Position numbers and translations under genes: made by a program
Shown here: one piece after another, positions 30,066-50,361 of the stretch
Numbering within the stretch: the first letter of the stretch is position 1
Layout of the letters: every line of letters begins with the position of its first letter
Source of the DNA: Elusimicrobiota bacterium
GTDB taxonomy: Bacteria > Elusimicrobiota > Elusimicrobia > UBA1565
DNA length: 64,000 bases
NCBI GenBank assembly: GCA_043827405.1
Contig: JBDRPD010000105.1
Span: 32,001 to 96,000 of the forward strand
Direction: 5' to 3'
The notes under the pieces: model-generated
What the model was told of the DNA's origin: nothing
Seen by the model: the letters and a program-made list of their open reading frames with translations, nothing else
Databases searched by the model: none

Positions 30066-30080
30066 CAGGTTTAACGTCAG

Positions 30081-30860
30081 ATGAATGAACGATTTCTCTC
30101 CACGGGCCAAGCAGCGAAAATTTGCTCCGTCACCAGGGATACTGTTCTTAAGTGGATCAAGCTCGGCAAGATCGACGCCATCCAAACTCCGGGCGGGCAT
30201 TACCGGGTCAACCGCATCAGTCTAGACCCATATCTATCCAGCGATAAACCCGTCGCAGCGCTCCAGCCTGCTGATAAGCATGTCTCCTTCTGTTGGGAAT
30301 ACCATGCCAAGGAAGGCGAGATCGGTCATGACTGCCGCAAGTGCATGGTGTTTAAATCCCAGGCGCAGAAGTGCTATCTGATGGCCGGCCTCGGCGAGAA
30401 GGGCGGGCATGTGGGCGTGCACTGCAAGGACAACTGCTACGAATGCGAGTACTTCCGCTTCATTAATGACTCGGTGCCTAATGTCCTGCTGATCACCGAC
30501 AACGAGGACATGATCAAAAGGATGCAGGCGCGTACTTTGGACCGCATGATTCTCCGGGTCGCCAGCTGCGAATACGACACTTCCGCCATGGTCCATGATT
30601 TCAAGCCGGACTTCATCATCATCGATGATTCCCTGATCGGCGGCAGCCCGGATGGGCTGTGCCGGCACCTGATAAAGGACCCGCGGGTTCATGGGGCGCA
30701 AATCATTTTAGCCGTGCCGGAGGGGCGCAAGCGGGACACGCTGCTGGAAGGCGTATGCGCCTCAATGGTCATGCCGTTTAGCGTAGATCAGATGGAGGAG
30801 AGCTTTGACCGGCTCAGAAGAAGCCTGTGGGGTACCCGCAGGCCGCCGGCGCAGAATTGA
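30081..30860 (+). CDS. Regulator: HTH_17 (excisionase/MerR-like) + Cys-rich domain + degenerate receiver-like domain
   Basis: LSTGQAAKICSV...QTPGGHYRV; CWEYH..CRKC..KCYLM..CKDNCYECEYF; FKPDFIIID. Confidence 0.75.
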   Translation: MNERFLSTGQAAKICSVTRDTVLKWIKLGKIDAIQTPGGHYRVNRISLDPYLSSDKPVAALQPADKHVSFCWEYHAKEGEIGHDCRKCMVFKSQAQKCYLMAGLGEKGGHVGVHCKDNCYECEYFRFINDSVPNVLLITDNEDMIKRMQARTLDRMILRVASCEYDTSAMVHDFKPDFIIIDDSLIGGSPDGLCRHLIKDPRVHGAQIILAVPEGRKRDTLLEGVCASMVMPFSVDQMEESFDRLRRSLWGTRRPPAQN

Positions 30861-30877
30861 TCCGTGATTGGAGAGTT

Positions 30878-31408
30878 ATGATGCTAAAAGAGCCCAAGAT
30901 CAGCAATACGAAGTTAACCCTTGTTAAGGGCGATGTGACCGACACGGACGCGGACGCTTTTGTGTTTTACGCCCGCAACGACTTGCAGCTGGGTTCCGGC
31001 TACGGCACGGCGATTACCCTGAGAGGCGGCCCCGGCATCAAGAAGGAGTTGGACGCGATCGGCAGGGTGGCGACGGGCAAGGCCGTGGCGACTGGTGCCG
31101 GTGAGATGAAGGCGAAGGTCATCATCCACGCCTGCGGACCCAAGTTCCAGGAGGAGGACGAGGAGAAAAAGCTGCGCGATACCATGCAGTCTTCCCTAAA
31201 ATGCGCCGATGAGAAGGGCGTGAAGACGCTCGCATTCCCCCCCATGGGCTCAGGCTTCTACGGCATCCCGCTGGACATGTGCCGCAAGGTCATGATCGAG
31301 GAGATCCGGAAGCACCTTGAAGGCAAGACTTGCCTCGAGGAAGTCCGGATCGTCGTGCCGGACCCGAGAGAAGAGGGGCCTTTCGGCGAGGCCATCAAGA
31401 GCCTCTAA
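30878..31408 (+). CDS. Macro-domain protein (divergent)
   Basis: LVKGDVTD, AVATGAGEMKAKVIIHACGP, LAFPPMGSGFYG. Confidence 0.85.
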   Translation: MMLKEPKISNTKLTLVKGDVTDTDADAFVFYARNDLQLGSGYGTAITLRGGPGIKKELDAIGRVATGKAVATGAGEMKAKVIIHACGPKFQEEDEEKKLRDTMQSSLKCADEKGVKTLAFPPMGSGFYGIPLDMCRKVMIEEIRKHLEGKTCLEEVRIVVPDPREEGPFGEAIKSL

Positions 31409-31429
31409 AGGCTTCCGAGGAGAGAAACT

Positions 31430-32140
31430 ATGCAAGAAATGAGTGGATTGCTGCATTTTGCGGAAACACGGCTGCAGGAGGCCGCCTTGGTCTGGATGGC
31501 CTGCGTGTACGCCTTCAAGATCCGGTGGCTGCTGAGCTTTAAGGACGGCAAGGACGGGTCCATCGCCACGGGTATGGGCGCGGTGGACAAGGAGACGGGC
31601 AAGTGGTACTCGATGGCCAACATCGTCATGCCGTGGGCCATGGAGAGCACCCGGAAGAACCCCTTCTTCTACCTCCAATTCGTGCTCTTCCATCTGGGAG
31701 TGGTGGCGTCGATCAGCATGTCCTTCGTTATCCCGTACATGCCCTTCCTGCTGAAAAACGCCCTGGTGGTCAAGGTCATCCAAGGGCTCTGCGCCACGGC
31801 CTGCGTCATCGGCATCGGCCGGATGATCCGGCGCATCGTCAGACCGGTTATGCGGCTGATCAGCACTCCGGATGACTACTTCTCGCTGGCCCTCTTGACC
31901 GTGTGGTTCGCCGTGGCGACGCTGGCGGCGCCCAACGACATCAGCGGCGGCGAAGGGATCATGCTGACCTACTTCTTCATGACCGCGTTCTTTCTGATCT
32001 ACGTCCCCTTCAGCAAGATATCGCACTACCTGTACTACCCGTTCACCCGGTTCTGGATCGGACGCGCGCTCGCCAAGCGCGGCGTCTACCCCCCGGTGAA
32101 GGGTCCCGACCAAGTGGCGAGCAAGTACGCCGAGGTATAA
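31430..32140 (+). CDS. NarI-family membrane cytochrome b (TmcC/HmcE-like)
   Basis: Multi-TM, FHLG, STPDDYFSL, VPFSKISHYLYYPF. Confidence 0.75.
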   Translation: MQEMSGLLHFAETRLQEAALVWMACVYAFKIRWLLSFKDGKDGSIATGMGAVDKETGKWYSMANIVMPWAMESTRKNPFFYLQFVLFHLGVVASISMSFVIPYMPFLLKNALVVKVIQGLCATACVIGIGRMIRRIVRPVMRLISTPDDYFSLALLTVWFAVATLAAPNDISGGEGIMLTYFFMTAFFLIYVPFSKISHYLYYPFTRFWIGRALAKRGVYPPVKGPDQVASKYAEV

Positions 32141-32144
32141 GACC

Positions 32145-33887
32145 ATGAACGACACGAAAACGAGATCACATAAGGCCAAGAAGTTCCTGGAGCGGCTGCC
32201 GATGAAGCTCAACCGGCAGATCGTGGGCTCGCTCGCGGGATGCGTGCACTGCGGCATGTGCACCGACTCCTGCCACTATGTGCTGGCCAACCCCGACGAT
32301 CCGACCTTCGCGCCGGCGCACAAGGCGGACCAGCTGCGCAAGATCTTCAAGCGCCACATCGACTGGACGGGGAAGGCGTTTCCCTGGTGGGTAAGCGCCA
32401 AGAGTGTGTTTACCGATGAGGACCTCGAGACCCTTAAGGACATCGCCTTCGGCAAGTGCACCAATTGCCGGCGCTGCACCTTCAACTGTCCGATGGGCGT
32501 CGACTTCGCGACCGTCAACCGCACCTTGCGCGGCCTCCTGGTCCACGTCGGCGTCATGCCCGAAGGCGTCTCCGTGGTCAGCAAGGACCAATGGGAGATC
32601 GGCAACCAGATGGGCGTGCTCAAGGAAGACTACCTGGAGACGATCGACTGGATGTCGGATGAGCTCGCGGGCGAGGTCGGCGACGAGAAGGCGCGCATCC
32701 CGATCGAGAAGAAGAACGTCGACGTCATGTACACCATTAACCCCCGCGAGGTGAAGTACGACCCGCGCTCGATCTCCGACGCCGCCAGGATCTTCTGGGC
32801 GGCCGGCGAGAGCTGGTGCATGCCGGAAGAGGGCTGGGACATGACCAACTTCGGCCTATTCTCCGGCGACGACGACCTCGGCGGCACCGTGGCCAAGCGG
32901 GTCTACGACAAGGCGCGGGAGATCAACGCCAAGAAGGTCGTTATCTCGGAGTGCGGCCACGGCTACCGCTCGACCCGCTGCGAGGGCGTGAACTGGGCGC
33001 AGGACAAGAAGCCGGTCGTCATGGAAAGCTCGGTCCTCACCATGCTCGAGTACATCAAGTCGGGCAAGATCAAGGTGGACAAGAGCAGGAACCCGGGGAC
33101 CTATACCTTCCATGACTCCTGCAACAACGCCAGAAGCTGCGGGCTGACCGAGGAACCGCGCGAGCTGTTGAGCCTGGTGGTCGAGAATTTCCAGGAGATG
33201 TACCCCAACCGCGCCGAGAACTACTGCTGCACGGGCGGCGGCGGCGCGATGTCGATGTCGGAGTACACGCCGCGGCGGCTTAAGTCGGCGAAGGTCAAGG
33301 CCGACCAGCTCAAGGCCACGGGCGCCAAGATATGTGTGACGTCCTGCCACAACTGCGTGGACGGTCTCTCGGACTGCATCAAGCATTATGAGATCGACAT
33401 GAAGGTGACGCAGCTGGTGAACCTGGTCGCTAACGCCCTGGTCGTCCCGTCGCGGGTCACCCCGCCGGCGGCGAAGGAGCTGGTCCTCGCCGGACGCACC
33501 ATCCTTGTCGTCGACGACGAGCCGGACGCCCTGACGTTCTTCAGCACGGTGCTCTCCGACAACGGCGCCAAGATCGTCGAGCTGTCGGACGGCAGCGAGG
33601 TGCTCAGGAAGGTGAAGGAGCTCAAGCCCGACCTCGTGACGCTCGACATCTCCATGCCGGGGAAGGACGGAGGCAAGGTGCTGGAAGAGCTGCGCAATGA
33701 CCCGGAGACCGAATCGGTGAAGGTCTGCATCATTACCGGCAAGCCGGAGCTCAGGAAGCTCATCTACGACCGCCCCGTGCGGCCGCCGGAAGGCTATCTG
33801 GACAAGCCGGTGGACGAGGAGAAGCTGCTGATGAACGTGCGCAAGATTCTGGAGCTCGCGCACGACGAAGCGCCCGTAGCGGCATAA
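32145..33887 (+). CDS. HdrD/TmcB-like Fe-S oxidoreductase (CCG) fused to a C-terminal receiver domain
   Basis: CVHCGMCTDSC, CTNCRRCTFNCP, SECGHG, HDSCN, CCTGGGG, SCHNC; then ILVVDDEPD...TLDISMP...TG...KP. Confidence 0.88.
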   Translation: MNDTKTRSHKAKKFLERLPMKLNRQIVGSLAGCVHCGMCTDSCHYVLANPDDPTFAPAHKADQLRKIFKRHIDWTGKAFPWWVSAKSVFTDEDLETLKDIAFGKCTNCRRCTFNCPMGVDFATVNRTLRGLLVHVGVMPEGVSVVSKDQWEIGNQMGVLKEDYLETIDWMSDELAGEVGDEKARIPIEKKNVDVMYTINPREVKYDPRSISDAARIFWAAGESWCMPEEGWDMTNFGLFSGDDDLGGTVAKRVYDKAREINAKKVVISECGHGYRSTRCEGVNWAQDKKPVVMESSVLTMLEYIKSGKIKVDKSRNPGTYTFHDSCNNARSCGLTEEPRELLSLVVENFQEMYPNRAENYCCTGGGGAMSMSEYTPRRLKSAKVKADQLKATGAKICVTSCHNCVDGLSDCIKHYEIDMKVTQLVNLVANALVVPSRVTPPAAKELVLAGRTILVVDDEPDALTFFSTVLSDNGAKIVELSDGSEVLRKVKELKPDLVTLDISMPGKDGGKVLEELRNDPETESVKVCIITGKPELRKLIYDRPVRPPEGYLDKPVDEEKLLMNVRKILELAHDEAPVAA

Positions 33888-33903
33888 GCCGCCGCGGGTC
33901 CGA

Positions 33904-33927
33904 CCCGGGAAGCGCGGGCTTCCCGGG
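33904..33927 (+). terminator. Stem-loop between oxidoreductase and kinase
   Basis: CCCGGGAAGC-gcgg-GCTTCCCGGG. Confidence 0.4.
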
Positions 33928-33940
33928 CGGGAGCGGATAC

Positions 33941-35347
33941 ATGGACGCGCCTTTCTATCAGCAGTGCTTTGAGGAAATGCCCTGCTATGTGTCCGTGCAG
34001 GACCGCGACTTCCGCATCATCGAGACCAATCGGCGCTTCCGTGAGCATTTCGGCGACGGCGTCGGCGAGTACTGCCACAAGATATATAAGCGGCGCGACG
34101 AGCGCTGTCCCGTCTGTCCCGTGGCGCAGACCTTCGAGGACGGCAATAACCACACCAGCGAAGAGCAGGTGCGGACTTTGGCCGGCGAGCCGGTCTGCAC
34201 TCTAGTCAACACCTGCCCAATCCGCGACGACAATGGCGAGGTAGTCGGCGTCATCGAGATGTCGACCGACGTCACTGCGGCCAAGCGGCTGCAGCGGCAG
34301 TTGGAAGAGAGCCAAAAGCTCTATCAGCTGCTCTTCGAGGAAGTCCCCTGCTATATATCGGTGCAGGATCGCGACTTCCGCATCGTGCACGCGAACAGTC
34401 GTTTCAAGCGGGACTTCGGGCATAAGCAGGGCTACTGCTACGAGATCTACAAGCACCGCAGCGAGCGCTGCCTGGAGTGCCCGGTTGCGGAGACCTTCAA
34501 GGACGGGAAGGCGCACTACAGTGAAGAGGTCGTGACCTCCGACTCCGGCGAACGGATCAATACGCTCGTCTGCACGGCGTCGATCCGTGACGACAACGGA
34601 GAGATCGTCCAGGTGATGGAGATGTCGGCCAATATCACTCGCATCCGGCAGCTGCAGGATCAACTGACTTCGCTGGGGCTGCTTGTGGGCTCGATCTCGC
34701 ACGGCGTTAAGGGGCTGCTGACCGGCTTGCGCGGCGGCATCTACATGCTTAAAACAGGTATTACAAAGCATGACGATGAACGGATCGCCCGGGCCTGGGA
34801 GATGGTGGAAGGCAACGAGAGCCGCATTCGCGGCATGATCCACAATATCCTGTACTATGCCAAGGAGCGGGAGCTCAATATCGAGACCATCGACGCCGCC
34901 AAGCTGCTCGGCGAGGTCTGCGGCGTGCTGCATGATCGGGCCCGGCAGCTCGGGATAACGTTGACGCAGAAGGAAGGGGCTGTCGGCGAACTGGTCGGCG
35001 ATTCCAACGCTTTGCATGCGGCGTTGGTCAACCTGGTCGACAATTCCTTGGACGCCTGCCGGGTTGACAAGAGGAAGAGCGAACATGCGGTCGAAGTCGG
35101 AGTCCGGGAGGACGGAAGCGAGGTTATTTTCGAGATCACCGACAACGGCATCGGGATGGACCGGGAAACCCGGGAGAAGGCCTTCAGCATGTTCTTCTCC
35201 TCCAAGGGCACGGAAGGAACGGGGCTTGGCCTGTATATTTCCAATAAGATCGTCCTTCAGCATAGGGGAATGATTTCCATCGAGTCGACTGCGGGGCAGG
35301 GGACTCGTTTTGCGGTAAAAATACCCAGAAATGGAGCGCACGCATGA
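33941..35347 (+). CDS. Cytoplasmic histidine kinase with two Cys-containing PAS domains
   Basis: Two PAS repeats with C-x10-CxxCP; H-box SISHGVKG; N box NLVDNS, DNGIG, GTGLGL. Confidence 0.9.
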   Translation: MDAPFYQQCFEEMPCYVSVQDRDFRIIETNRRFREHFGDGVGEYCHKIYKRRDERCPVCPVAQTFEDGNNHTSEEQVRTLAGEPVCTLVNTCPIRDDNGEVVGVIEMSTDVTAAKRLQRQLEESQKLYQLLFEEVPCYISVQDRDFRIVHANSRFKRDFGHKQGYCYEIYKHRSERCLECPVAETFKDGKAHYSEEVVTSDSGERINTLVCTASIRDDNGEIVQVMEMSANITRIRQLQDQLTSLGLLVGSISHGVKGLLTGLRGGIYMLKTGITKHDDERIARAWEMVEGNESRIRGMIHNILYYAKERELNIETIDAAKLLGEVCGVLHDRARQLGITLTQKEGAVGELVGDSNALHAALVNLVDNSLDACRVDKRKSEHAVEVGVREDGSEVIFEITDNGIGMDRETREKAFSMFFSSKGTEGTGLGLYISNKIVLQHRGMISIESTAGQGTRFAVKIPRNGAHA

Positions 35348-35721
35348 GCAAGAAGATATTGGTGGTGGATGACGAGCCCGATACGGTGTCCTTTTTAACG
35401 ACGTTGCTGGAGGACAACGGCTATGTTACGTGTTCGGCTAACGACGGCGATGAGGCGAGAGGCGTGCTGAAGAGCGAGAAGCCGGATCTGATTACCTTAG
35501 ATATCGAGATGCCGAACAAGTCCGGAGTGCGGCTCTACCGGGAGATGAAGGAAGCTCCTGAGCTGAAAGACATCCCCGTGCTTTTTGTCTCCGGCCTGGG
35601 GGACTTCAAAATCTTCATGCAGAAGATCAAGCCCCTGCCGGATCCCGCGGCCTTTGTTGAGAAGCCGCTGGATGAGGAGCGGGTGCTGCAGGCGGTAAAG
35701 AAGGCGCTGCTTCCCGCTTAG
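35344..35721 (+). CDS. Single-domain response regulator
   Basis: ILVVDDEPD, TLDIEMP, EKP. Confidence 0.9.
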   Translation: MSKKILVVDDEPDTVSFLTTLLEDNGYVTCSANDGDEARGVLKSEKPDLITLDIEMPNKSGVRLYREMKEAPELKDIPVLFVSGLGDFKIFMQKIKPLPDPAAFVEKPLDEERVLQAVKKALLPA

Positions 35722-35726
35722 GTCCG

Positions 35727-37277
35727 CTATTTCTTTTCTTTATGGCAGGCGGTGCAGCCGTTGAGTTTGGTTAGTCCCATCTGCTCATGGCACCTCATGC
35801 ACTGCAGATGGTAGGCGCCCTTAAGTCCAGTCATCCCCATATTTCCCGCGAAGGACCTGCCGTGGCAGTTGCGGCAGGCGAGGGGCTTCATTTCTTTGGG
35901 CGTGCTGTGGTGACAGCCCATGCACAGCGTGTCCTCTCCGCCGTGGAAGCTCTTTGCCAGCGCGCTGTCGCGGGCGTTTTTGCGCAAGGTATCGATGATC
36001 TTACGATGCGGGAAGGTTACCTGCTCGTATTTGTCGGAGAGGTGGTCGATGGTGATGTTCTTTGGGATGTCGCCGTCTTTCCAGGAGAGCTTTCCGTAGC
36101 TCTTTTCTTTCAAGAACTTCCCGATATTCTCTGGGCGCGTCGCCGCGATCAGCGGTGAGCTGGGCGGCGGTCCTGAGTGGCATACGCTGCATTCGCCTTT
36201 TCCTAGGGGCTCCTGCTTCATGATAGAGTGGCATCCCGAGCATCCGGGCCGTTGTTTAATTTGGTTGTGGCAGCCGACGCAGCTGTGGCTCGATGTCGGG
36301 GCGTGCATGGAGCGGGCGAGAGTGACGCCCCCGCCTTTTTTATCTCCGAAGAGGGTATGGCAGTCCCGGCATGCCTGCATGTTTTCGTGATGACATGCGC
36401 GGCATGAGGAAGTTGTTTCTTCATGCTGTTTGTGGTCGAATGGGACCGTGTTGATTCGGGCATGCCGCGGGTCGGCGGCGCGCACGAGCGCGGCGTCCGG
36501 CTGACCGCTTTTCAGCCGCGGGACCTTGGCCGGCCTTATAAAGGCAAGCTGGCTGTCCGCATCATGACAGCCCGCGCATGATTTCGGCCCAGAGTCCATA
36601 TTTTTCTCGGTCTTTTCAAGATGGCAGCCGACGCATTTGCGATGCGAGACGCGTTTCATGGATCTTCGGTTGCCCTCGGATGTTCGTCGGTGGCAGTCGC
36701 GGCAGGATCTTTCCCGCCCCTTAATATAGACGAGCTTTTGCTGCCGCTCGTCGAGCTCGTGATGACACAGCTCGCATTTCTTGGCGCTCGCTTTGACGTG
36801 ACGGTAATGCAGGGATTTGTCGAGCCTTATCTCCCGCCGCGAGGAGACCGTCCGCGGCCGCAGCTGATGGCAGACGCCGCAGTCGCTGGTCACGACGGGG
36901 CCGGTTTCCCTTCCGGCCGCGGCCTGCTCTTTATGGCAGGCGATGCACTTGCCGTGGTAGAGGTTCTGCAGCGCCTGCATATCGGCGCCCGGCAGATCTA
37001 CGAACTGGGGAATAAATAATCCTTGGTCGTCCTTTTGGTGACAGGCATCGCAGCTTTTTCCCTGCTTATCGAGAGCCTTGGTGTGCATGTCATGCAGGAA
37101 TGGAACGGCTGGCCGCTTAAGCTCATGGAACTGGGCAATAGAGTCGATCGATATAATATCGGGTCTGGCAGCTTGCGCTTTCTCTTCACTGCCGCTTGCG
37201 GCGCCGAAGAGGATGGCGCTCGCTATGAACGCGCCGAAAACGACGGTTGCTTTGCGTTGTGTTTCGTTTTTCCCCAT
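35727..37277 (-). CDS. hmcA: 16-heme high-molecular-weight cytochrome c
   Basis: Signal peptide; 16 CxxCH motifs counted, with c3-type HxxH distal ligands. Confidence 0.9.
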   Translation of the reverse strand: MGKNETQRKATVVFGAFIASAILFGAASGSEEKAQAARPDIISIDSIAQFHELKRPAVPFLHDMHTKALDKQGKSCDACHQKDDQGLFIPQFVDLPGADMQALQNLYHGKCIACHKEQAAAGRETGPVVTSDCGVCHQLRPRTVSSRREIRLDKSLHYRHVKASAKKCELCHHELDERQQKLVYIKGRERSCRDCHRRTSEGNRRSMKRVSHRKCVGCHLEKTEKNMDSGPKSCAGCHDADSQLAFIRPAKVPRLKSGQPDAALVRAADPRHARINTVPFDHKQHEETTSSCRACHHENMQACRDCHTLFGDKKGGGVTLARSMHAPTSSHSCVGCHNQIKQRPGCSGCHSIMKQEPLGKGECSVCHSGPPPSSPLIAATRPENIGKFLKEKSYGKLSWKDGDIPKNITIDHLSDKYEQVTFPHRKIIDTLRKNARDSALAKSFHGGEDTLCMGCHHSTPKEMKPLACRNCHGRSFAGNMGMTGLKGAYHLQCMRCHEQMGLTKLNGCTACHKEKK

Positions 37278-37292
37278 AAAGATGCCGTTGCG

Positions 37293-37436
37293 TTAAGAGC
37301 CGCTTTCGTTTCCTTCGCTGTTGGTTAATGCCCGGTAAAAGAAAAAGAACCCGACCACGATCGTTACGGCGAGGGCATAGATTACCGCTTCCGTATGGTA
37401 AAAGAATTCATGCAGCGTATGTATTTCGCCTGCCAT
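37293..37436 (-). CDS. hmcD: HmcD-like small membrane subunit (47 aa), not in ORF track
   Basis: MAGEIHTLHEFFYHTEAVIYALAVTIVVGFFFFYRALT...; directly after hmcC. Confidence 0.7.
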   Translation of the reverse strand: MAGEIHTLHEFFYHTEAVIYALAVTIVVGFFFFYRALTNSEGNESGS

Positions 37437-37437
37437 A

Positions 37438-39665: not shown

Positions 39666-39679
39666 CAAAGTCCCTCTTG

Positions 39680-41005: not shown

Positions 41006-41031
41006 GGTCTTTCTCCGCGCATGGAATCTCT

Positions 41032-41679
41032 CTACCAGTCTCTCGCGCTGCGGACGAGTCCGAATTCGCACCCCATATAGGCGCGCGTGAACGGAAAGAA
41101 CAGCATATGGCTGATCCGCGAGAACGGGACGGCGACGAGCCAGATCGCACCGCACCACATATGCAGGAGCATTATGGTTTGGTAGTTAAAAATCTGATAG
41201 TACGCGAGGACCCCCGTAACGAACGGGGCCAGGACGATGGCGATGAAGATGTAGTCCGTGAAAGAGGTGACGAAGCGGACTGTCGGGTTGACGATTCGCC
41301 GCAGCAGCAGAAGCAGGCCGATGACAACGGCTGTGATGGCGAGGACGTTGGAAAGTCCGTCGGGGAAGCACCGCCAGCTGATCCCCCAAGACTCCTGCCA
41401 GAGGACGTTGTGGCCCAGGAGAAAAACCGGAGTCGCCAGCAGGCAAAAGTGGAAGGTGAAGGTCATGACCGTCATGGCGGGCTGCAGGCGCCATGATTTG
41501 GTCGCGAACGGAACGACCCAGTGCAGGATGGAGCGTAATCCGAAATGCAGGTCCATATACGGCAGGACGGTTTTTTCCTTTTTGGCTCCGGAGATCATGG
41601 CGGCAATGCGATAGATGCTGCCGCCGATGGAAATGACGAAGGCGATCCAGAGCAGCGGGCCGCGGGCGAATTCTTGCAT
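41032..41679 (-). CDS. tmcC: TmcC membrane cytochrome b
   Basis: GPLLWIAF, GLRSILHWVVPF, FHFCLL...GHN, PFSRISHMLFF, GCEFG. Confidence 0.78.
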   Translation of the reverse strand: MQEFARGPLLWIAFVISIGGSIYRIAAMISGAKKEKTVLPYMDLHFGLRSILHWVVPFATKSWRLQPAMTVMTFTFHFCLLATPVFLLGHNVLWQESWGISWRCFPDGLSNVLAITAVVIGLLLLLRRIVNPTVRFVTSFTDYIFIAIVLAPFVTGVLAYYQIFNYQTIMLLHMWCGAIWLVAVPFSRISHMLFFPFTRAYMGCEFGLVRSARDW

Positions 41680-41683
41680 ATTC

Positions 41684-42925
41684 TTATTGGCTCCTTGCGA
41701 CCTCTCTTACGTATTTCCCGTTCTCGATGTAGCGGAGCAGCAGGCTGTCCCCTCGGGGGCTGAAGACAGGCTCCCAGAGTCTTTCATAGCTATTGTCCCG
41801 CAATTCACCGTCAACGACGAGATGAAACCGGCCGTCCTTTTCCGCCTTGGCGGCTACATGCTTCCCGCAGGGACTGAACACCGGGTCCCATATCATGTCG
41901 AATGTCTCCGCCCAGGCCTTTCCGTCGACTGCGATCGACCAGACATCGTTGTGCTTGACAATGGCGGCGACGCTCCGGCCGTCCGGCGAAAAGACGGGCG
42001 CCAATACCATGTCGCTGAAAAGTTTCTCCCAGGGGTGATCGTCGACGGCGATCGTCCAGCGTCCGAACTGCGGCGCGACGACCGCCGCAAGCCGTGAGCC
42101 GTCGGGACTGAACCTGGCTTGCCAGAGCTGCCCGTAGCCCCCCCAGATCGGCCGGCCGTCTTCGGCCAGCGTCCACTTGCCTTGGTGCTTTACCGGCGCG
42201 ATGGCCGACGAGTCGTCGGGCCTGAAGAGGGGTTCCCATACGCCGCCGAAGCTCTCAGACCAGGGCTGATCGTCCGCGGCCGCGGAATATTCGCAGATGC
42301 CGGTCCGAATCTCGACTGCGACTTTCGAGCTGTTCGGGCTGAAGACCGGCTTCCAGGTATTGACGTATTTCCTGTCCCAGACGCTTCCGTCCATCGCCAC
42401 GGACCAGACGCCTTTGAAGAAGCCGGGAACATCGGCTTCTTTAAGCGCTTCGACCTGCACGGTGGCTGCGGTGCGCTTTCCGTCGGGGCTAATGCAGTAG
42501 TCGCGAATTGATAGAAAGCCGGTATCCCAGGGTTTGCCGTTGAGCGCGATCCCATACATGTCGTCGCGCTTGTAGATGACGGCGAGGCCTTCGCCGTTGG
42601 CGCTCAGTTTTGGCTCCCAGGCGTATTCGAACTTTTCCGTCCACGGTTCCTTATCGACGGCCAGAGTCCATTGATCCTCGGCCTTAACCAGCGCGATCAG
42701 CTTGCCGTTGGGCAGATACTTCAGGTTCCAGAGCATTTCGTAGGAACCGGGCCAGAACTCGCCGTTGACCCAGGCGGTGAATTCGCCGTCCTCATTCTTT
42801 ACCGTCGCCGCGATATGTTCTCCGTCGGGGCTAACGACAAACTGCTGGATCTTAGGGTGTTCCTTCAGGGCCTTGCCGACATCGGCGATGATGTTTTTTT
42901 CGCGGTTCCAGTTCCAGTCTTCCAT
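41684..42925 (-). CDS. tmcD: TmcD Trp-rich beta-propeller protein
   Basis: Repeated W.P.FSPDG..VAA and WTIAVD..W units. Confidence 0.8.
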   Translation of the reverse strand: MEDWNWNREKNIIADVGKALKEHPKIQQFVVSPDGEHIAATVKNEDGEFTAWVNGEFWPGSYEMLWNLKYLPNGKLIALVKAEDQWTLAVDKEPWTEKFEYAWEPKLSANGEGLAVIYKRDDMYGIALNGKPWDTGFLSIRDYCISPDGKRTAATVQVEALKEADVPGFFKGVWSVAMDGSVWDRKYVNTWKPVFSPNSSKVAVEIRTGICEYSAAADDQPWSESFGGVWEPLFRPDDSSAIAPVKHQGKWTLAEDGRPIWGGYGQLWQARFSPDGSRLAAVVAPQFGRWTIAVDDHPWEKLFSDMVLAPVFSPDGRSVAAIVKHNDVWSIAVDGKAWAETFDMIWDPVFSPCGKHVAAKAEKDGRFHLVVDGELRDNSYERLWEPVFSPRGDSLLLRYIENGKYVREVARSQ

Positions 42926-42928
42926 GGG

Positions 42929-43459
42929 TTATATCGCGCCGGGGGGCGGAGTCTCCTCTTCCTCTAGAATACTTTTCGCTGTTATGTACAAGTCTTCCGC
43001 ACGGGAGCGGTCCGATATCAGGCGCTTGATATCGTTGGTACGGCGGGAGCCGAGCCGATAGACGACGCAGCTGCGGCATTCGTTTCCTTTGGGGCTGCAG
43101 TTGCCTCCACGGATCATCCAGCAGGGCTTCGCGGTGTCGGTTTTCGCGGCGCAGCTGCTGCGCTTGGTCTTCGAGCAGCGTACCAGATCCCAGCACGGCA
43201 GCAAGGCTTGCAGCCTACGGATGCCTTCCATGTTCATCCCTTGGTCCTTGATCATGTGCTGGATCGTCTTGACGCGCGCGATGTCCTCGCGGGAGAAAAG
43301 GCGGTGGCCCGACGGCATGCGGTGCGGGATAAGGAGCCCCTCCACTTCGTAATTTCTAATCGATGATACGGAAACGCCTGTTTTTTCCGCCAAAGTGCCG
43401 ATCGATAGGAGGGGTTCTGAGAGTTCGGCGTGAGGATCGGCCATGTGAAATACTATCAT
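42929..43459 (-). CDS. MerR-family regulator with Cys-rich two-CW-like C-terminal domain
   Basis: SIGTLAEKTGVSVSSIRNYEVEGLL; PCW..C...C...PCW...C..ECRSCVVY. Confidence 0.85.
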   Translation of the reverse strand: MIVFHMADPHAELSEPLLSIGTLAEKTGVSVSSIRNYEVEGLLIPHRMPSGHRLFSREDIARVKTIQHMIKDQGMNMEGIRRLQALLPCWDLVRCSKTKRSSCAAKTDTAKPCWMIRGGNCSPKGNECRSCVVYRLGSRRTNDIKRLISDRSRAEDLYITAKSILEEEETPPPGAI

Positions 43460-43576
43460 AAGCAGTAGAGTAAATCTACAAAGCAGGACATAGATATTAT
43501 GCAGCCGGCATGGGATATCCTGATATCAGAGTATAGATGCCGGATGCGGCGGCGTGAACGAGGGACTGCAGAGTAC

Positions 43577-44080
43577 TTAGTCGGACAGGAGCTTGAGGAC
43601 CTTCTTTAGCTTCTTGTCATCAGCTGTTTTGAGCCGGTCCTGGATTTGCTCCCGTAGGCCGTGCTCTTCGCCGCTCGTCGGCAAGCCGAGGGACTTCCGA
43701 ATGGCGCTAATGTATGCCGGCGGTTTGACCGGCTTTTCCAGGAAGGTGATGGGGTTATTCTTGGCTTCCTGCTGCAGTTCGCGCAGGCTATCGCTGCCGA
43801 ACTCATCCTTGCCGTGCGCGGTAACGACGACGACGGGGATGTCTTTCCGGTCCTTGTTTTTCTGTATATACCGGTAGAACTTCAAGCCGGACATTTTCGG
43901 CATGACGAGGTCGAGCGAAATCGCGTCGGGCTTCTTTTCGGTCATGCGCTCGAGCGCCTGCTTGCCGTTGCTCGCGACCATGACGTCGAATCCCGCGTCT
44001 TCTAGGATCGTTCGCAGATAGAGCTGCACATCCGGCTCATCGTCCACGATTAAAATGGTCTTGTCGCTCGTGTCGCTCAT
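43577..44080 (-). CDS. Response regulator (receiver plus short helical tail)
   Basis: ILIVDDEPD, SLDLVMP, LEKP. Confidence 0.88.
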   Translation of the reverse strand: MSDTSDKTILIVDDEPDVQLYLRTILEDAGFDVMVASNGKQALERMTEKKPDAISLDLVMPKMSGLKFYRYIQKNKDRKDIPVVVVTAHGKDEFGSDSLRELQQEAKNNPITFLEKPVKPPAYISAIRKSLGLPTSGEEHGLREQIQDRLKTADDKKLKKVLKLLSD

Positions 44081-44093
44081 GATATCCTCCAAC

Positions 44094-45551
44094 TTATTTC
44101 CCCGTTTGTTTGGGGAGCCGCTTACGGGGGAACTCAAGGGTGAAAACCGAGCCGCCGCCGTCAGCTGTTTCTACGGTAATTTCACCGCCATGCTGTGATA
44201 CGATCTTTCGGGTGACGAGAAGTCCGAGCCCCGTACCTTGCCCGGAGCCTTTGGTCGTAAAAAAATTTGTGAAGATCTTCTTCTTCACTTCGTAATCCAT
44301 TCCGCAGCCGTTGTCTTCGACCCGGTAATAGATTGTATCGTTCCTTTCCCGGCATGACAATACTACTTTTAGCTTCTTTTTATCGCTCACGAGGCAGGCG
44401 TCGATCGCGTTCGATACGAGGTTGGCCAGCGAAGTGTGAATCCCTTCGGCGTCCAAGGAGGCTTTCTTCAGCGCTTGCGGATAATCTCCCGTCAAAGTGA
44501 TCCCGGAGCGCTTAGCCGTTTCTTCATACAGCGATACGACTTCCTCGGCAATCTTTACGGGATCTACCTGCCGGACGGTGGGCTCCGTGCCCTTGGCGAA
44601 GCTTAGGAACTCCGCGACGAAGGAAGATATCTTTGTGATATTGCTTTCAAGCATCTTCCATCCTTCCTTCGTCAGGGTTTGGTCATCTCGTTTAAGGCCG
44701 GAATTGACGACGTACATCCCTCCCTCGAGGCCCATAATAATGTTCTTGATGCCGTGCGACAGCCCGGCGACCGTTTGCCCCACGGCAGCAAGCCGCTCTG
44801 CTTCCAGCTTCTCGTGCTCCGCCTTTTCAAGCTTGGTCTTTAGATCCAGGACTTCGGAGACGTCGTGCGCGATCTCGATGACGCTGGCGATGCCGTCGCC
44901 GTCCCGCCGCAGGGGCGCCGTCGTTACCATGTAGTGCGATTTCTTCCCCTTCCTGTCGATGCCTTCCTGCAGCGTGCTGTGCGTTTCTCCGGTCTCGAAG
45001 GCTTTGATCGAGGGGCAGTTCGCGCAGGGGTTCGCGCTCGCTTTATACATCTCGTAGCAGTGGGTCTTGCCCTTCCTGCCGAACTTGTCGTCAAAAAATT
45101 TATTGGACTTGATTATCTTGAGATTGCGGTCAATGACGGTGATGTAGCATGGGACATTCTCGAGTAGAAAACTGTGTTCCTGGGCCATGGCCACGCGTTC
45201 TGAGACATCGCTGGACATCTCGACCACGAACGGGATCCCGCCCTTATCGTCTCGGAGCGGGAAGAAACGGACGCGGTAGTACGTCGCTCCCCCGTTCTTA
45301 CTTGTGCCTTGCTCTTCGGAAGTTCGAACTTCTCCGCTCTCGAATGTCGCGAGCGCCGGGCACTTGGAGCACTGCCGTTTTCTTTTTTTGTAAACCTGGT
45401 AGCATTTCTTCCCCTGCCAAGGGCCGTAGGTAGCCTCGAAAAGAGCGTTTGCCTTGATGATGTTGAATCCCTTATCGATTACGGCGATCTGCATCGGGAC
45501 CTGATCGAATAGACCCTCCTGAATCCAGTCGCTAATGCGGGACGGGGTCAT
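44094..45551 (-). CDS. Cytoplasmic histidine kinase with two Cys-containing PAS domains
   Basis: CYQVYKKRKRQCSKCP, CYEMYKASANPCANCP; GLSHGIKN; DNGCG, GTGLGL. Confidence 0.9.
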   Translation of the reverse strand: MTPSRISDWIQEGLFDQVPMQIAVIDKGFNIIKANALFEATYGPWQGKKCYQVYKKRKRQCSKCPALATFESGEVRTSEEQGTSKNGGATYYRVRFFPLRDDKGGIPFVVEMSSDVSERVAMAQEHSFLLENVPCYITVIDRNLKIIKSNKFFDDKFGRKGKTHCYEMYKASANPCANCPSIKAFETGETHSTLQEGIDRKGKKSHYMVTTAPLRRDGDGIASVIEIAHDVSEVLDLKTKLEKAEHEKLEAERLAAVGQTVAGLSHGIKNIIMGLEGGMYVVNSGLKRDDQTLTKEGWKMLESNITKISSFVAEFLSFAKGTEPTVRQVDPVKIAEEVVSLYEETAKRSGITLTGDYPQALKKASLDAEGIHTSLANLVSNAIDACLVSDKKKLKVVLSCRERNDTIYYRVEDNGCGMDYEVKKKIFTNFFTTKGSGQGTGLGLLVTRKIVSQHGGEITVETADGGGSVFTLEFPRKRLPKQTGK

Positions 45552-45955
45552 CGGCGGTCTCCGCGGGCGAATACTGAATCCAGGAAATCAATAAACCGTT
45601 TGACATCGATGGGCTTTTCAAAAAAGGCTTCCGGTTCGGGGATGTCCGGGTCCGGCAGATGCCTTCTGAAGTCCTGCTTGAAGCCGTAGGCGATGCCGCC
45701 GATGCCGCTGATGATGGCAATGGGGATGTCCTTGGTGACTTCATTCCTCTTTAGGTCTTTATACAGCGAAAGCCCCGATCTTTTCGGCATCATGATATCC
45801 AGGCAGATTAGGCCGGCGTGTTCCTTCTTGGCCAAGGCCAAGCCTTCGAATGGGTCGGAGGTGGATATCGCTTCGTACCCGTTGTCCTGCAGCAGCGTGG
45901 TCAGATAGAGCAGGATATGGGCTTCGTCGTCGACGAGCAGGACTTTTCGGCTCAC
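45548..45955 (-). CDS. Single-domain response regulator
   Basis: LLVDDE, CLDIMMP, EKP. Confidence 0.88.
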   Translation of the reverse strand: MSRKVLLVDDEAHILLYLTTLLQDNGYEAISTSDPFEGLALAKKEHAGLICLDIMMPKRSGLSLYKDLKRNEVTKDIPIAIISGIGGIAYGFKQDFRRHLPDPDIPEPEAFFEKPIDVKRFIDFLDSVFARGDRR

Positions 45956-46018
45956 AGTACACTCCGCGACCGCGGGCGGGCTAAAGCGGCCGGATTCAGC
46001 ATCCTAACAGAGTCCGTA

Positions 46019-46408
46019 TCAGCCGATCAAGTCTTTAATTGTTTTAACCAATGCGTCACGGTCAATGGGCTTGGGTATGAAGCCGTCTGGAGGCGGTACC
46101 TTCTTCCGGCTGGAGATGAACTTCTTGAAGCTCTCGGGATCATTGGCGTAGCCGGTGACCGCGGTCACGACGACGATGGGAATGTCCTTGAGCGAATCAT
46201 CTTCTCTGAAGGCGCGATACGCCTTGATTCCCGACTTCTCCGGCATGGTGATGTCCAGCGTGATCAAGTCCGGTCGGTCCTTGCGGGCCTGATCAAGCGC
46301 ATCATCCACCTTGTCGGCGAGGATGGTCGTGTAGCCGTTGTCTTTGAGCAGGGTATCCAGATAGGTCAGGACATCCTTCTCGTCATCGATAACTAGGATC
46401 TTTTTCAT
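46019..46408 (-). CDS. Single-domain response regulator
   Basis: ILVIDDEKD, TLDITMP, PKP; GAGG RBS before ATG 46408. Confidence 0.88.
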   Translation of the reverse strand: MKKILVIDDEKDVLTYLDTLLKDNGYTTILADKVDDALDQARKDRPDLITLDITMPEKSGIKAYRAFREDDSLKDIPIVVVTAVTGYANDPESFKKFISSRKKVPPPDGFIPKPIDRDALVKTIKDLIG

Positions 46409-46418
46409 GCGCACCTCT

Positions 46419-48020
46419 TTACTCTTCCCATTTAATAAACGGCTGCTTGATGTCAACCATGGCGTTTACGATGAGCTCGACGAGGCCGCCATAGATGATG
46501 TTGGAGCGCTCCTTACACTTATAGTACTCCAGGATGTCGCGGAACTGACCCTTGCAGTTTGAGCAGGGCGCGCAGATATACTTCTTGACCTCGGGCCCCG
46601 GCTGGTCGCTGAAGGCTCCGAGCACCTGTTTGAGCTTCTTCCTGCCGCCGACGGCAATGCGCCAGTTCGCGAAGTTGTTGCCGCTCATGATCGCGAAGCC
46701 GCTGCCGCCGCCGCAGCAGTAGTTCTCGACGCCATGCGGCGTCATCTCGCGAAACTGCGGGCAGAGGTAGCGCAGGATGCGCCGCTGCGGCTCGACGATT
46801 CCCAGGTTGCGGGTGATATTGCAGGGATCATGCAGCGTCACCGGGAAATCGTTCTTCTTGGGGTCGAACTTGATCTTGCCGCTGAAGACGATCTTTTCGA
46901 GCAGCGGCAGACAGCTCTCCCGGTTGACGTTCATGTCGCCGACGAGGATGCGGTCGGCGATAGTCATCATGGCCTTGTGCTGGTGACCGCACTCGCCCAT
47001 GACGACCTTCTTGACCTTCAGCTTCTTGGCCGTGCCCATATGCTTGAGGGCGATGCGTGCCAGCTGCATGTCGTCGTAGAACAGCCCGTAGTTCACGCCG
47101 TCGTAGGACGGCTCAGCGGAAGAGAGCGTCCAGTCGATGCCGGCGGCGTTGAGGATGATGGCGAAGGCCGCAGGGTTCTCCGGCCAGGCCATAATCTCGC
47201 CCGCGTTATGGATCAGGAGCACCTCGGCCCCTTCCTTGTCCCACGTGGTTTTGGCGTCGAGCCCGCTCTCTTCCGAGAAGTCCTCATCGACGAACTCGAT
47301 ATTATCCTTGACCACCATGGGCGTCATGCCCGTCGACGAGCCGACCTCGAGCTGCTGTACCGTCCCCTTTTCATGCAGCTCCTTGGGCGCCCAGCCGAGC
47401 TCCTGGCTGAAGAGCTTGCGCAGCTCATGGTTGATGAGGCCGTTGTCGACGCCCATCGGGCAGGCTTGGGCGCAGCGCCGGCACATGGTGCAGCGGTAGG
47501 CGAGCTCGTAGAGGCGGGTGATGGTCGTCCAGTTGAGGTCGATGTCGCCGTGCTTGAACTTGGCCAGCCATTGCGGCCCGTCCTTGACGTACTTGTTGAC
47601 CAGGCGCCTCCACACCTCGGAGCGAAACGTCGGCCGGTAGAGGTCGTTGTTGCCGCTCTCCTCGTAGACGGGGCAGGCGTCATTGCAGGTCTGACATTTC
47701 GCGCAGTACTCCAACGAGAGCGTCAGGGGCTGCTGAAACGTCCAATTGTTTTCCTTGCTGAGGAGTTTCCCCAGGCCGCTGCGAAACTTCTCAACCATCT
47801 CCTGCTTCTCTTCCTCGCTTTTGGGCTGCGGCAGGCTGCAGGCAACCACGCCGTCCAGGTTGCAGACGATACTCTCTTTTGTTTCAGGCTTGATCTCCTT
47901 CCAGACCGGCTCGTCCTTGTCATAGGGCGGCGGCAGCGGGATCAGGTCCTGCATGCTGACGCTGGTCAACGGCGCGGAGCCGTTCTTGCCGAAATCTTCT
48001 ACTCTAAGAGCTTTAGGCAT
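46419..48020 (-). CDS. DsrK/HdrD-like Fe-S oxidoreductase (second paralog)
   Basis: CAKCQTCNDACP, CTMCRRCAQACP, GECGH, HDPCN, CCGGG, PCSNC. Confidence 0.85.
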   Translation of the reverse strand: MPKALRVEDFGKNGSAPLTSVSMQDLIPLPPPYDKDEPVWKEIKPETKESIVCNLDGVVACSLPQPKSEEEKQEMVEKFRSGLGKLLSKENNWTFQQPLTLSLEYCAKCQTCNDACPVYEESGNNDLYRPTFRSEVWRRLVNKYVKDGPQWLAKFKHGDIDLNWTTITRLYELAYRCTMCRRCAQACPMGVDNGLINHELRKLFSQELGWAPKELHEKGTVQQLEVGSSTGMTPMVVKDNIEFVDEDFSEESGLDAKTTWDKEGAEVLLIHNAGEIMAWPENPAAFAIILNAAGIDWTLSSAEPSYDGVNYGLFYDDMQLARIALKHMGTAKKLKVKKVVMGECGHQHKAMMTIADRILVGDMNVNRESCLPLLEKIVFSGKIKFDPKKNDFPVTLHDPCNITRNLGIVEPQRRILRYLCPQFREMTPHGVENYCCGGGSGFAIMSGNNFANWRIAVGGRKKLKQVLGAFSDQPGPEVKKYICAPCSNCKGQFRDILEYYKCKERSNIIYGGLVELIVNAMVDIKQPFIKWEE

Positions 48021-48900
48021 TCTTCGTCTCCTCCTTCTTCGGCATGTCCGACGTCGCGATGTCGACCCAGTTCTTCTTGCCGTCGGCGCCCAGATGCGGC
48101 GCCGACCAGGTCACGGTCTGTCCCAGCAGCTGCTTGACCTCTTCCTCCATCGCCGGATTCATGGGCTCGTCGTTCCAGCGAATCTCATGGTAGAAGAAGT
48201 ATTTGGCCAGGAAGTGCATCATGTAGGAAAACGGCAGGTAGAGCAGGAAGAACATCCCCGCCGCGATATGCGCCGCGATCGCGCCGCTGACCGCCATCCC
48301 GGTGTTCCCGGAGAAGAAGGCCTTGATAAATCCCGTCATCTCGGCGGTGAAGCTGGTCGTAAAAACGGCGTAAGCTCCGGAAACGAATACCGCCGCCAGC
48401 ACCAGCAGGTTGAAAAAAGACGCCGGCGTGGCGAAAGGCTTAAGCTTGGGGTCGAGCAGGCGTTTCAGGAAGAGCCCCACGGTTCCGATCGCGCCCAGGA
48501 TATAGCCCGCCGTTCCCAGCAGCAGCGCCAGGCGTTCGGCCGGCGGGAAGGCAAAAGCCGCGAGAAGCAGTGCGCCGGTCATGGCGGTCAGCAGGTAGAG
48601 CCCGAAATGGAACGGGAAGGAGAATATCCACAGCGGGCGGTTATGCTCCCAGACGCCTTTCAGGAAAACGATTTCCTTGAACATGTAGAGGCCTTCGCTG
48701 AGCAGCGATTTTTCGCGCGGCTTGGTCCACCACTCAAACTCCTCCAGGTAGGATCCGCCGTAATGGGCCTTGCCGGCCTCATGCGGTACCGGAGCGAGCT
48801 CCCAGCGCAGGTGCATCGGCATCATCTTGATGCTTAGACCGCGATATACGAAACCGATCGCGAAGACGGCTGTTGCGATGTAGCAGAATATAAGCAGCAT
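48013..48900 (-). CDS. DsrM/NarI-like membrane cytochrome b
   Basis: PMHLRWELAPVPHE, FPFHFGLY, LPFSYMMHF. Confidence 0.8.
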   Translation of the reverse strand: MLLIFCYIATAVFAIGFVYRGLSIKMMPMHLRWELAPVPHEAGKAHYGGSYLEEFEWWTKPREKSLLSEGLYMFKEIVFLKGVWEHNRPLWIFSFPFHFGLYLLTAMTGALLLAAFAFPPAERLALLLGTAGYILGAIGTVGLFLKRLLDPKLKPFATPASFFNLLVLAAVFVSGAYAVFTTSFTAEMTGFIKAFFSGNTGMAVSGAIAAHIAAGMFFLLYLPFSYMMHFLAKYFFYHEIRWNDEPMNPAMEEEVKQLLGQTVTWSAPHLGADGKKNWVDIATSDMPKKEETKNA

Positions 48901-49416
48901 CTACCCTTCCTCCTCTTTCTTGCTGTCTAGTTTGTCCAGGAACGCCCGTACTTCCTTGCTTATGTCGTCGAGGCCTGAGCGGCCGTAAACGATGCCCTTG
49001 ATGTCCTCGGTGCACTGTGAGCCGAAACGATAGACGACGCAGCTGCGGCATTCATTGCCCTTGGGGCTGCAGTTTCCGCCCTTAATCATCCAGCAAGGCT
49101 TCGAGCTGCCCTTATAGGCCGCACACGCCCCACGTCTCTTCTTGCTGCATTCGGCGACTTCCCAGCAAGGCAGGAGAGCCTGCAGCCGACGAATGCCCTC
49201 CATGTTCAGCCCCAGTTCCTGAATCATGTGGCGGATGATTTTGATGCGGTCCATGTCCTCATGCGAGAACAGGCGGTTTCCGGTGGGCGTGCGATAGGGG
49301 ATGAGTAGTCCTTCGGCCTCGTATTTGCGGATGGCGGAGACCGATAGGCCGGTTTTCGCGGCCAGCGTTCCTATGGATATAACCGGATCGGTGAGTGTAT
49401 TGCGCGGCTTTCCCAT
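48901..49416 (-). CDS. MerR-family regulator with Cys-rich two-CW-like domain (paralog of 42929-43459)
   Basis: SIGTLAAKTGLSVSAIRKYEAEGLL; LLPCWEVAEC...PCWMIKGGNCSPKGNECRSCVVY. Confidence 0.85.
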   Translation of the reverse strand: MGKPRNTLTDPVISIGTLAAKTGLSVSAIRKYEAEGLLIPYRTPTGNRLFSHEDMDRIKIIRHMIQELGLNMEGIRRLQALLPCWEVAECSKKRRGACAAYKGSSKPCWMIKGGNCSPKGNECRSCVVYRFGSQCTEDIKGIVYGRSGLDDISKEVRAFLDKLDSKKEEEG

Positions 49417-50349: not shown

Positions 50350-50361
50350 GCCTTTCCCCCC

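Follow-up and report, generated by a model that had tools for sequence, protein, structure and literature searches.

The stretch of DNA analyzed here (the window) comprises 64,000 nucleotides of contig JBDRPD010000105.1 from an Elusimicrobiota bacterium (GenBank assembly GCA_043827405.1). It carries a sulfate-reduction gene cluster, in which the plus strand encodes qmoCAB, dsrABDNLC, and dsrTMKJOP, the minus strand encodes aprBA, and sirohaem genes are present as well; several of the dsr and qmo names were assigned by reading translations, with no model scan. The same window contains three regulator genes, termed R1, R2, and R3, that share a small cysteine (Cys)-rich domain. In the 4.3-Mb genome, a profile search (E≤1e-25) identified exactly four DsrK/HdrD-type CCG paralogues, namely, the canonical DsrK and one each behind R1, R2, and R3. 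Each accessory DsrK/HdrD-type module is headed by one of the regulators, and the canonical dsrTMKJOP operon is without one.

The initial annotation had located regulator open reading frames (ORFs) at 30081, 43459, and 49416, and all three are indeed present as the only carriers of the Cys motif in the genome. A regular expression for the motif, run over 46,019 six-frame ORFs, retrieved R1, R2, and R3 only, and a profile of the domain gave E values of 1.6e-22, 1.1e-16, and 2.2e-15 for the three, with the next ORF at 0.099, a gap of 13 orders of magnitude. The regulators belong to a real, conserved, and uncharacterized family. They had been described as apparently undescribed, and no paper characterizing them was found in a literature search whose scope excluded subscription journals and supplements, but a relative, likewise uncharacterized, already exists as model NF045718 in NCBIfam.

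Regulators with a common cysteine domain

Two subfamilies can be distinguished. R2 and R3, which are 57% identical, combine a GlnR/TnrA-like winged helix-turn-helix (wHTH) with the Cys domain (the MerR type), while R1 joins a BldC-like helix-turn-helix (HTH) to the Cys domain and an atypical receiver domain (the BldC type). Accordingly, the MerR-superfamily HTH originally assigned to all three is upheld for R2 and R3, with MerR_1 scores of 64 and 61 bits, but not for R1, whose HTH is of the excisionase/BldC type (HTH_17 at 37 bits, MerR under the cut-off). Genome-wide, Pfam yields 7 MerR_1 and 16 HTH_17 matches, and the Cys domain occurs on R1, R2, and R3 alone. The features of the three regulators and of the genes behind them are collected in Table 1.

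Table 1. Regulators, predicted control sites, and associated genes in the window (positions in nucleotides unless marked as residues)
Feature	Position	Strand	Remarks
R1 sigma70-type promoter	30001..30029	+	TTGACA-17-TAAAAT, 11/12 consensus
Predicted R1 operator	30031..30068	+	four ATAAA-containing direct repeats, 9/11/9 bp spacing, right behind the -10 box
R1	30081-30860	+	259 aa; BldC/excisionase-type HTH (residues 5-53), Cys domain, atypical receiver domain
R1 7-Cys domain	30291-30446 (residues 71-122)	+	
R1 atypical receiver domain	about residues 132-249		D182 present; Lys, Thr/Ser absent
Macro-domain protein	30878..31408	+	conserved member of R1 module, directly after R1
HmcE/TmcC-like cytochrome b	31430..32140	+	57 bits, below cut-off of 275
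HmcF/TmcB-like Fe-S/CCG protein	32145..33887	+	fused to receiver domain
PAS-PAS histidine kinase and single receiver	33941..35721	+	end of R1 operon; kinase at 33941-35347
hmcB, hmcC, hmcA	35727..39668	-	distal R2 operon; all above NCBIfam cut-offs
tmcD, tmcC, tmcB	39680..42925	-	proximal R2 operon; tmcC NarI type; tmcB CCG, 723 bits vs cut-off 735
R2	43459 or 43444 to 42929	-	176 or 171 aa, start likely 43444; GlnR/HspR-like wHTH, 7-Cys domain
R2 Cys domain	about 43195-43067	-	eighth Cys missing
Predicted R2 operator	43453..43481	-	three half-sites; 18.2 bits, second-best genomic site
Promoter-like site upstream of R2	43530..43558	-	TTCACG-17-TATACT, 9/12, chance level alone
Receiver, receiver, PAS-PAS kinase, receiver	43577..46408	-	distal R3 operon
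dsrM2, dsrK2	46419..48900	-	DsrMK-only module; dsrM2 NarI type; dsrK2 DsrK-like, 319 bits vs cut-off 400
R3	49416-48901	-	171 aa; GlnR/TnrA-like wHTH (residues 10-80), 8-Cys domain (84-135), C-terminal helix
Predicted R3 operator	49460-49432	-	overlaps R3 promoter; 32.6 bits, best genomic site
R3 promoter	49471-49443	-	TTGATT-17-TATACT

In the predicted model of R3, a helix at residues 72-80 leads into the Cys domain and a further helix closes the C-terminus at residues 149-170, with no long dimer helix or coiled coil after the wHTH. GlnR and TnrA are the best relatives of this wHTH in both sequence and fold (E 3e-12; Z 9.8 and 9.7; root-mean-square deviation 2.0 over 78 residues), and R2 and R3, like them, are predicted to occupy palindromic sites without the help of a coiled coil. 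The operator differs from that of GlnR/TnrA, and in place of the unstructured C-terminus by which those proteins bind glutamine synthetase (PMC5859096), R2 and R3 have the Cys domain and a helix. A model of HspR, like GlnR and TnrA a non-classical MerR-like regulator, gave 50-55 bits for R2 and R3, relative to a cut-off of 105.

For the HTH of R1, the top two matches in the PDB are both BldC of Streptomyces (6ama and 6amk). BldC residues V23, W31, I40, T42, G44, and H46 correspond to V17, W25, I34, T36, G38, and H40 of R1, and five of the seven hydrophobic interface positions in the aligned part are identical, while the Arg22-Glu16 pair is lost and Arg30 is a Lys. BldC consists of an HTH only, whereas R1 adds the Cys and receiver domains, and R1 reaches 31.7 bits on the BldC model NF033787, against a cut-off of 77. 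The C-terminal domain of R1 has a receiver fold (Foldseek E 1.7e-6 to KdpE), in which the phospho-acceptor Asp182 is retained by all 100 of the 100 BldC-type rows, whereas the conserved Lys, Thr/Ser, and acidic pair are replaced by M231, V212, and T139-D140. Among the same 100 rows, the Lys position is K in 45 and R in another 23, and the Thr/Ser position is T in 11. This domain may provide a route for a second input.

The closest named homologues of the regulators are Elusimicrobiota proteins; 300 other genomes of the phylum nonetheless contained nothing that matched a full-length R1 profile. In a quick tree, R2 and R3 clustered with two Elusimicrobiota proteins (SH-aLRT 85), and in one of those two genomes (locus L002) a single regulator precedes a joined dsrM2K2-tmcDCB-hmcBCA run, which makes R2 a probable local duplicate.

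The Cys domain was initially credited with seven Cys throughout. That number is correct for R1 and R2, but R3 has eight, and the spacing in R1 is unlike that of R2 and R3, with a layout of CW...CY...CxxC in the former and CW...CW...CxxC in the latter two. All 74 of the 74 MerR-type rows keep six Cys, while the fifth is found in 58 rows and the eighth in 64 rows. In the BldC type, six Cys are likewise invariant across 100 of 100 rows, 98 of which retain a seventh. Profiles of the two subfamilies align across both the HTH and the Cys domain with an hhalign probability of 97.9%. A search of 1.84 billion representatives returned 709 matches at E≤1e-3, some of them false repeat-protein matches, and 152 at E≤1e-10; among the 150 matches listed, 133 were nearest to R1 and 8 nearest to R3, and the remaining 9 were long repeat proteins that match neither and look spurious. 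The domain is also found on chemoreceptors, one GGDEF protein, and one kinase, sometimes as two or three tandem copies.

Pfam has no family for the domain, 54 sequences having given seven single-member chance matches, a sequence search of the PDB produced one match (E 0.34), and the ESM Atlas gave only a lead of 0.77. The sole family matched by many members is NF045718, termed two-CW (a name for which the literature search yielded no paper), with 27 of 54 domain sequences matching weakly at E≤1 (best E 1.5e-4). R2 and R3 share its CW-x4-C...C-x9-CW-x6-C...CxxC pattern, but R3 scored 16.3 and R2 13.6 bits relative to a cut-off of 35, R1 did not match, and the domains of the window have shorter loops, are fused to DNA-binding domains, and, in R1, space their Cys differently. 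In the reverse direction, the Cys-domain profile retrieved two true stand-alone two-CW proteins, L198 and L199 (68 and 69 bits on NF045718), at per-genome E values of 4e-6 and 1.2e-5, and the domain is therefore best described as a distant relative of two-CW and not as a member by score. Each part of R1-R3 resembles a known kind (GlnR-like and BldC-like HTHs, Cys-based sensors, and the two-CW model), while the combination is set apart from the two-CW, classical MerR, GlnR/TnrA, and BldC families, either by score or by a defining feature.

Predicted operators

Each subfamily has its own conserved operator, as judged from upstream regions, and the form of that operator matches the HTH type. Upstream of MerR-type members lies a 29-bp element, GTRTAG-N5-CTAYAC-N6-GTRTAG, made up of alternating palindromic half-sites. 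It scored at least 10 bits in 65 of 70 dereplicated upstream regions in leave-one-out tests, compared with 0.4% of two-base-block shuffles, and the N5 and N6 spacings were kept in 56 and 57 of the 70 regions, respectively, versus about 5 by chance. In 32 of the 70 regions, a TTGAY box is found at a distance of 11 nt ahead of the site, which gives a promoter spacer of 17 bp and places the -10 box within the second half-site. Across 1.57 Mb of loci, the element was matched 120 times, and 115 of these matches lie ahead of the regulators described here. A matrix trained without the present genome ranked the R3 site first and the R2 site second in 4.3 Mb. One strong match of 25.7 bits (L012:1485) lies 147 bp before dsrM2 with the regulator gene about 8 kb away, hinting at control in trans. 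The Ignavibacteria clade associated with psr and octaheme genes (L206, L217, and L218) lacks the 29-bp operator, and a different inverted repeat, with TTGA...TCAA arms, is visible by eye upstream of its regulators.

BldC binds 9-bp direct repeats in a head-to-tail manner (PMC5859096), and BldC-like 9-bp direct repeats, though of different sequence, occur upstream of the BldC-type homologues, with binding by R1 predicted by sequence. In 87 such regions, an ATAAA-like word recurred at 9-bp spacing 42 times (0.2 expected) and at 18-bp spacing 19 times (0.4 expected), and the operator reached at least 12 bits in 69 of the 87, versus 1% of shuffles. ATAAA-N4-ATAAA has only three copies in the genome, two of which are at the R1 operator. 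The matrices of the two subfamilies cross-matched in 1 of 78 and 0 of 87 cases.

Since the operators cover the -10 box and the start of promoters with normal spacers, repression of the regulator's own operon is implied, and it appears highly probable that R1-R3 bind their predicted boxes and act as repressors. A genome-wide regulon was considered and rejected, with scores of at least 15 bits reached only by the R3 site, the R2 site, and one contig-end site. Promoter and terminator scans, taken overall, remained at chance level (9 vs 7.6 and 18 vs 18.5, respectively).

Downstream modules and homologous loci

The initial annotation had made each regulator the first gene of a run encoding a NarI-type cytochrome b and an HdrD-like protein. 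Both proteins are encoded behind all three regulators, but the gene next to R1 encodes the macro protein and that next to R2 is tmcD; only the stop codon of R3 adjoins the start of dsrM2. Likewise, the regulators do head sub-operons, but R2 and R3 are embedded in one long minus-strand run (aprBA...hmcA) and consequently lead only their own sub-operons, each from its own internal promoter/operator.

The R2 module joins the known tmcDCB to hmcBCA, in the order tmcD-tmcC-tmcB-hmcB-hmcC-hmcA. This hybrid operon (35727-42925), which lacks tmcA or hmcDEF in between, is also found in L002 and L003 of Elusimicrobiota. DsrC or ferredoxin has been suggested, though not established, as the partner of Tmc/Hmc (10.1101/005694). 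DsrMK-only copies alongside DsrMKJOP, as seen behind R3, are already known from PMC10504309, in the main text of which the word "regulator" does not occur.

No model matched the macro-HmcEF-like module of R1 above its cut-off. The macro gene is a fixed first member of this module across phyla (e.g., L005, L010, L060, and L079; ~48-76% identity), which suggests an ADP-ribose or NAD link to the redox complex. In addition, the receiver fused to the HmcF-like CCG protein (32145-33887) is DVU0259/DivK-like (68 bits, cut-off 160) and adjoins the PAS-PAS kinase gene, making phospho-control of this redox enzyme a possibility.

Homologous loci were collected in a GTDB scan with two peptide patterns (72 loci) and in a metagenome scan, from which the best 80 of 218 R1-type loci were used, for a combined set of 152. 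The 72 GTDB loci come from Planctomycetota, Gemmatimonadota, Ignavibacteria, LCP-89, Calditrichota, Elusimicrobiota, Fibrobacteria, Riflebacteria, and unlabeled bins, and none of them, within the reach of the two patterns, bears a Desulfobacterota label. The tie to accessory cytochrome-b/CCG modules proposed from the window recurs in this set. In 71 of 78 MerR-type loci, a module gene follows on the same strand within 2.5 kb (four others are contig edges and three have none), and 61 have dsrM2 as the next recognized gene. Among BldC-type loci, 66 of 111 are followed by a module gene in this way, 29 end at contig edges, and 16 have none. The conserved operators lend further support to a control role.

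Where a DsrC-like gene follows a BldC-type member, it is of the single-Cys DsrC/TusE-like kind, with the terminal Cys only, in 47 of 57 cases. BldC-type regulators outside the window (L004, L005, L016, L060, L077, and others) often head such a gene together with divergent dsrM and dsrK genes, ~25-40% identical to the canonical ones, and the regulators frequently occur as divergent pairs. In L010, L016, L018, L021, L026, L060, L113, and L123, the region separating a BldC-type regulator from the macro gene encodes a protein of ~215 aa that is DsrC-like but lacks the terminal Cys. Regulator-DsrC fusions appear in four database proteins (P0078, P0110, P0227, and P0282) and are either real or read-through artifacts.

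Co-occurrence of the domain with dsr genes, a check put forward with the initial annotation, gave a divided picture. Of 64 carrier genomes initially selected, 50 were tested, and 46 of these have dsrA; among 251 genomes from the class of a Gemmatimonadota carrier, all 6 genomes with the domain fall within the 7 with dsrA, 4 of these 6 being already in the GTDB pattern scan. But in 151 Ignavibacteria genomes, 48 have the domain and only 4 have dsrA, all 4 being among the 48, and dsr-specificity of the whole family was rejected on the basis of this sample.

Candidate signal and competing explanations

In the best 20 Ignavibacteria loci, a sulfur-redox gene is next to the regulator in 13, encoding a molybdopterin subunit in six, an octaheme cytochrome in five, and DsrE2-TusA and dsrM2 in one each; one further locus is cut. 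PhsA was the best model for the four molybdopterin subunits checked, all clipped by the locus edge and below the cut-off, while the three octaheme cytochromes checked all exceed the cut-off of the tetrathionate-reductase family. In addition, L189 heads a type III sulfide:quinone oxidoreductase (SQR) gene (665 bits vs a cut-off of 525) accompanied by DsrC and DsrE2, while a psrABC-like set stands behind the regulator of L187. A generic MerR-family gene has been reported before psrABC in a related lineage (PMC6338057). The common thread of these targets, as read from sequence, is sulfur-sulfur-bonded substrates, and a sulfane-sulfur signal is thus favored by genes for thiosulfate/polysulfide reductase, tetrathionate reductase, SQR, and DsrE/TusA.

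CstR, SqrR, BigR, and sHdrR are persulfide-sensing repressors with CsoR or ArsR folds and two reactive Cys. By analogy, R1-R3 could be Cys-based repressors released by sulfane sulfur, with distant relatives likewise placed before SQR and sulfur-carrier genes; CsoR- and ArsR-fold families found no match in R1-R3. We propose that R1-R3 are one-component repressors, each with a DNA-binding domain joined to the Cys cluster and with boxes that would overlap its own promoter or leader. R2 and R3 would dimerize on the alternating half-sites and so cover the spacer, the -10 box, and the start, and R1 would form a BldC-style head-to-tail chain on 9-bp repeats. Modification of the probably metal-loaded cluster (with Zn or Fe-S as the candidate cofactor) by persulfide or polysulfide would then make the repressor let go, and the DsrMK-, Tmc/Hmc-, and HmcEF-like accessory modules would be switched on. 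As a whole, this scheme stands about evenly between right and wrong, and its parts differ in strength. A small invariant Cys cluster common to two DNA-binding modes and other signaling proteins is most likely an input domain, and we regard a sensor role as probable. More tentative, and a little short of an even prospect, is the proposition that the cluster responds to sulfane sulfur, or to how heavily DsrC/TusE-type carriers are loaded with sulfur, and not to oxygen or a metal.

Several observations weigh against this proposal. The R1 site attains just 11 bits on the family matrix and is outranked by 12 other genomic sites of at least 14.5, the promoter of R2 is weak, and by-eye selection of the motif seeds from the regions tested, those of the window included, makes the shuffle tests somewhat optimistic. 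A MerR-type homologue directly before tmcD was found in 0 of 78 loci elsewhere, genes for ThiF, MTTB, or a hydrolase can likewise follow BldC-type members, and the related loci underlying the neighborhood counts are not independent events. Among 251 Planctomycetota genomes, with no more than 24 candidates scored per genome, the domain was found in 4 and dsrA in 6, but both together in only 2, which likewise counts against dsr-specificity. In Ignavibacteria, the regulator follows an acyl-CoA transferase gene in 5 of the 20 loci, and one locus is unclear. The Cys domain of R3 was modeled at low confidence (blocks of 56-74 in predicted local distance difference test), and no solved fold matched the domain, Foldseek and VIA-align with full-length models having found the wHTH or receiver only, which is not proof of a new fold. 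Finally, the sulfur-redox targets are all anaerobic respiration genes, and oxygen or redox potential would explain them nearly as well.

It is this last point that gives substance to an explanation in which the same repressors and operators serve an oxic/anoxic switch, with an oxygen- or redox-labile iron-sulfur (Fe-S) center reporting oxygen or redox potential. The well-supported targets all serve anaerobic respiration, six to eight Cys suffice for a cluster, and the domain also occurs on chemoreceptors. Moreover, OrpR of Desulfovibrio vulgaris offers a precedent as an Fe-S redox sensor that is, like R1-R3, a Cys-based regulator in a sulfate reducer, but it is a sigma54 activator with a PAS domain (PMC8359166), and no PAS domain was matched in R1-R3. 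Fe-S families of Pfam, for their part, matched 0 of 54 domain sequences at E≤1, and the targets among the 38 neighbors scanned in Ignavibacteria loci are sulfur-specific (PhsA-like, octaheme, and DsrE2-TusA), none of these neighbors having nitrate or fumarate reductase or hydrogenase as its best match. On this evidence, a redox switch is considered unlikely. Less likely still is that the Cys domain is a structural Zn module and that control resides in a partner, either through phosphorylation of the R1 receiver by a PAS kinase or through a DsrC-like or macro protein. The invariant Asp182, the PAS kinases and receivers in two of the three operons, the regulator-DsrC fusions, and the kinship of R2 and R3 to GlnR/TnrA, themselves controlled by protein partners (PMC5859096), would all be in keeping with such an arrangement. 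However, the receiver of R1 is missing its Lys and Thr/Ser (Met231 and Val212), short members (L193, L194, and L197) have no receiver at all, and the spread of the domain over unrelated signaling proteins is a better fit for a sensor than for a structural role.

The last alternative, that these are classical metal-ion sensors and activators of the MerR type that twist a long-spacer promoter, is very improbable. The operator of classical MerR activators such as MerR, CueR, ZntR, and SoxR sits in an over-long promoter spacer of 19-20 bp, whereas the spacer is 17 bp in R3 and in those homologue regions (32 of 70) where a TTGAY box is clearly recognizable. R2 and R3 share the MerR-type wHTH, as their MerR_1 matches attest, and CueR, ZntR, CadR, and SoxR models do give matches, but all classical models fall far under their cut-offs, R1 is below the MerR cut-off, and metal-resistance genes number zero among the annotated neighbors. 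Activation of the classical kind was rejected on the 17-bp spacer and the coiled coil missing from the model.

Returning to sulfane-sulfur-released repression, the question it addresses is what sulfate reducers gain from maintaining more than one DsrK-like complex (DsrMK-only, Tmc, and Hmc) and when each is used. In its broadest form, the two-CW-like cluster would be a new and widespread sulfane-sulfur sensor domain on two unrelated DNA-binding modes, reading the sulfur load of DsrC/TusE-type carriers and thereby allowing non-classical sulfate reducers (Elusimicrobiota, Gemmatimonadota, Planctomycetota, Ignavibacteria, and Calditrichota) to choose among up to four parallel DsrK-type electron conduits; this extension is speculative and, on balance, doubtful. 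If true, two-CW-like sensing would add a level of transcriptional control devoted to the step at which DsrC is reduced. The sharply defined operators make the trigger of each module testable in vitro or with reporters even though the hosts are uncultured, and Ignavibacteria relatives before psrABC-like genes may offer cultured hosts. Characterization of the Cys cluster would also show what the two-CW domain does, a domain that is found on chemoreceptors, kinases, and diguanylate cyclases.

A few further observations concern the distant members and the remainder of the window. One MerR-Cys branch lies directly after an acyl-CoA transferase gene with no visible sulfur context (L208, L209, L210, L220, and L221). 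Between positions 4135 and 20762, the window carries dsrD, dsrL, and dsrT alongside a full dsrMKJOP, qmo, and aprBA; an Elusimicrobia assembly without DsrK is reported in PMC10504309. After aprA, at 49492-50628, are a CxxCxxCC-family gene and an 88-aa Cys-rich ORF, for which NCBIfam gave no match at E≤1e-25, and the same pair recurs after aprA in L003 and L133.

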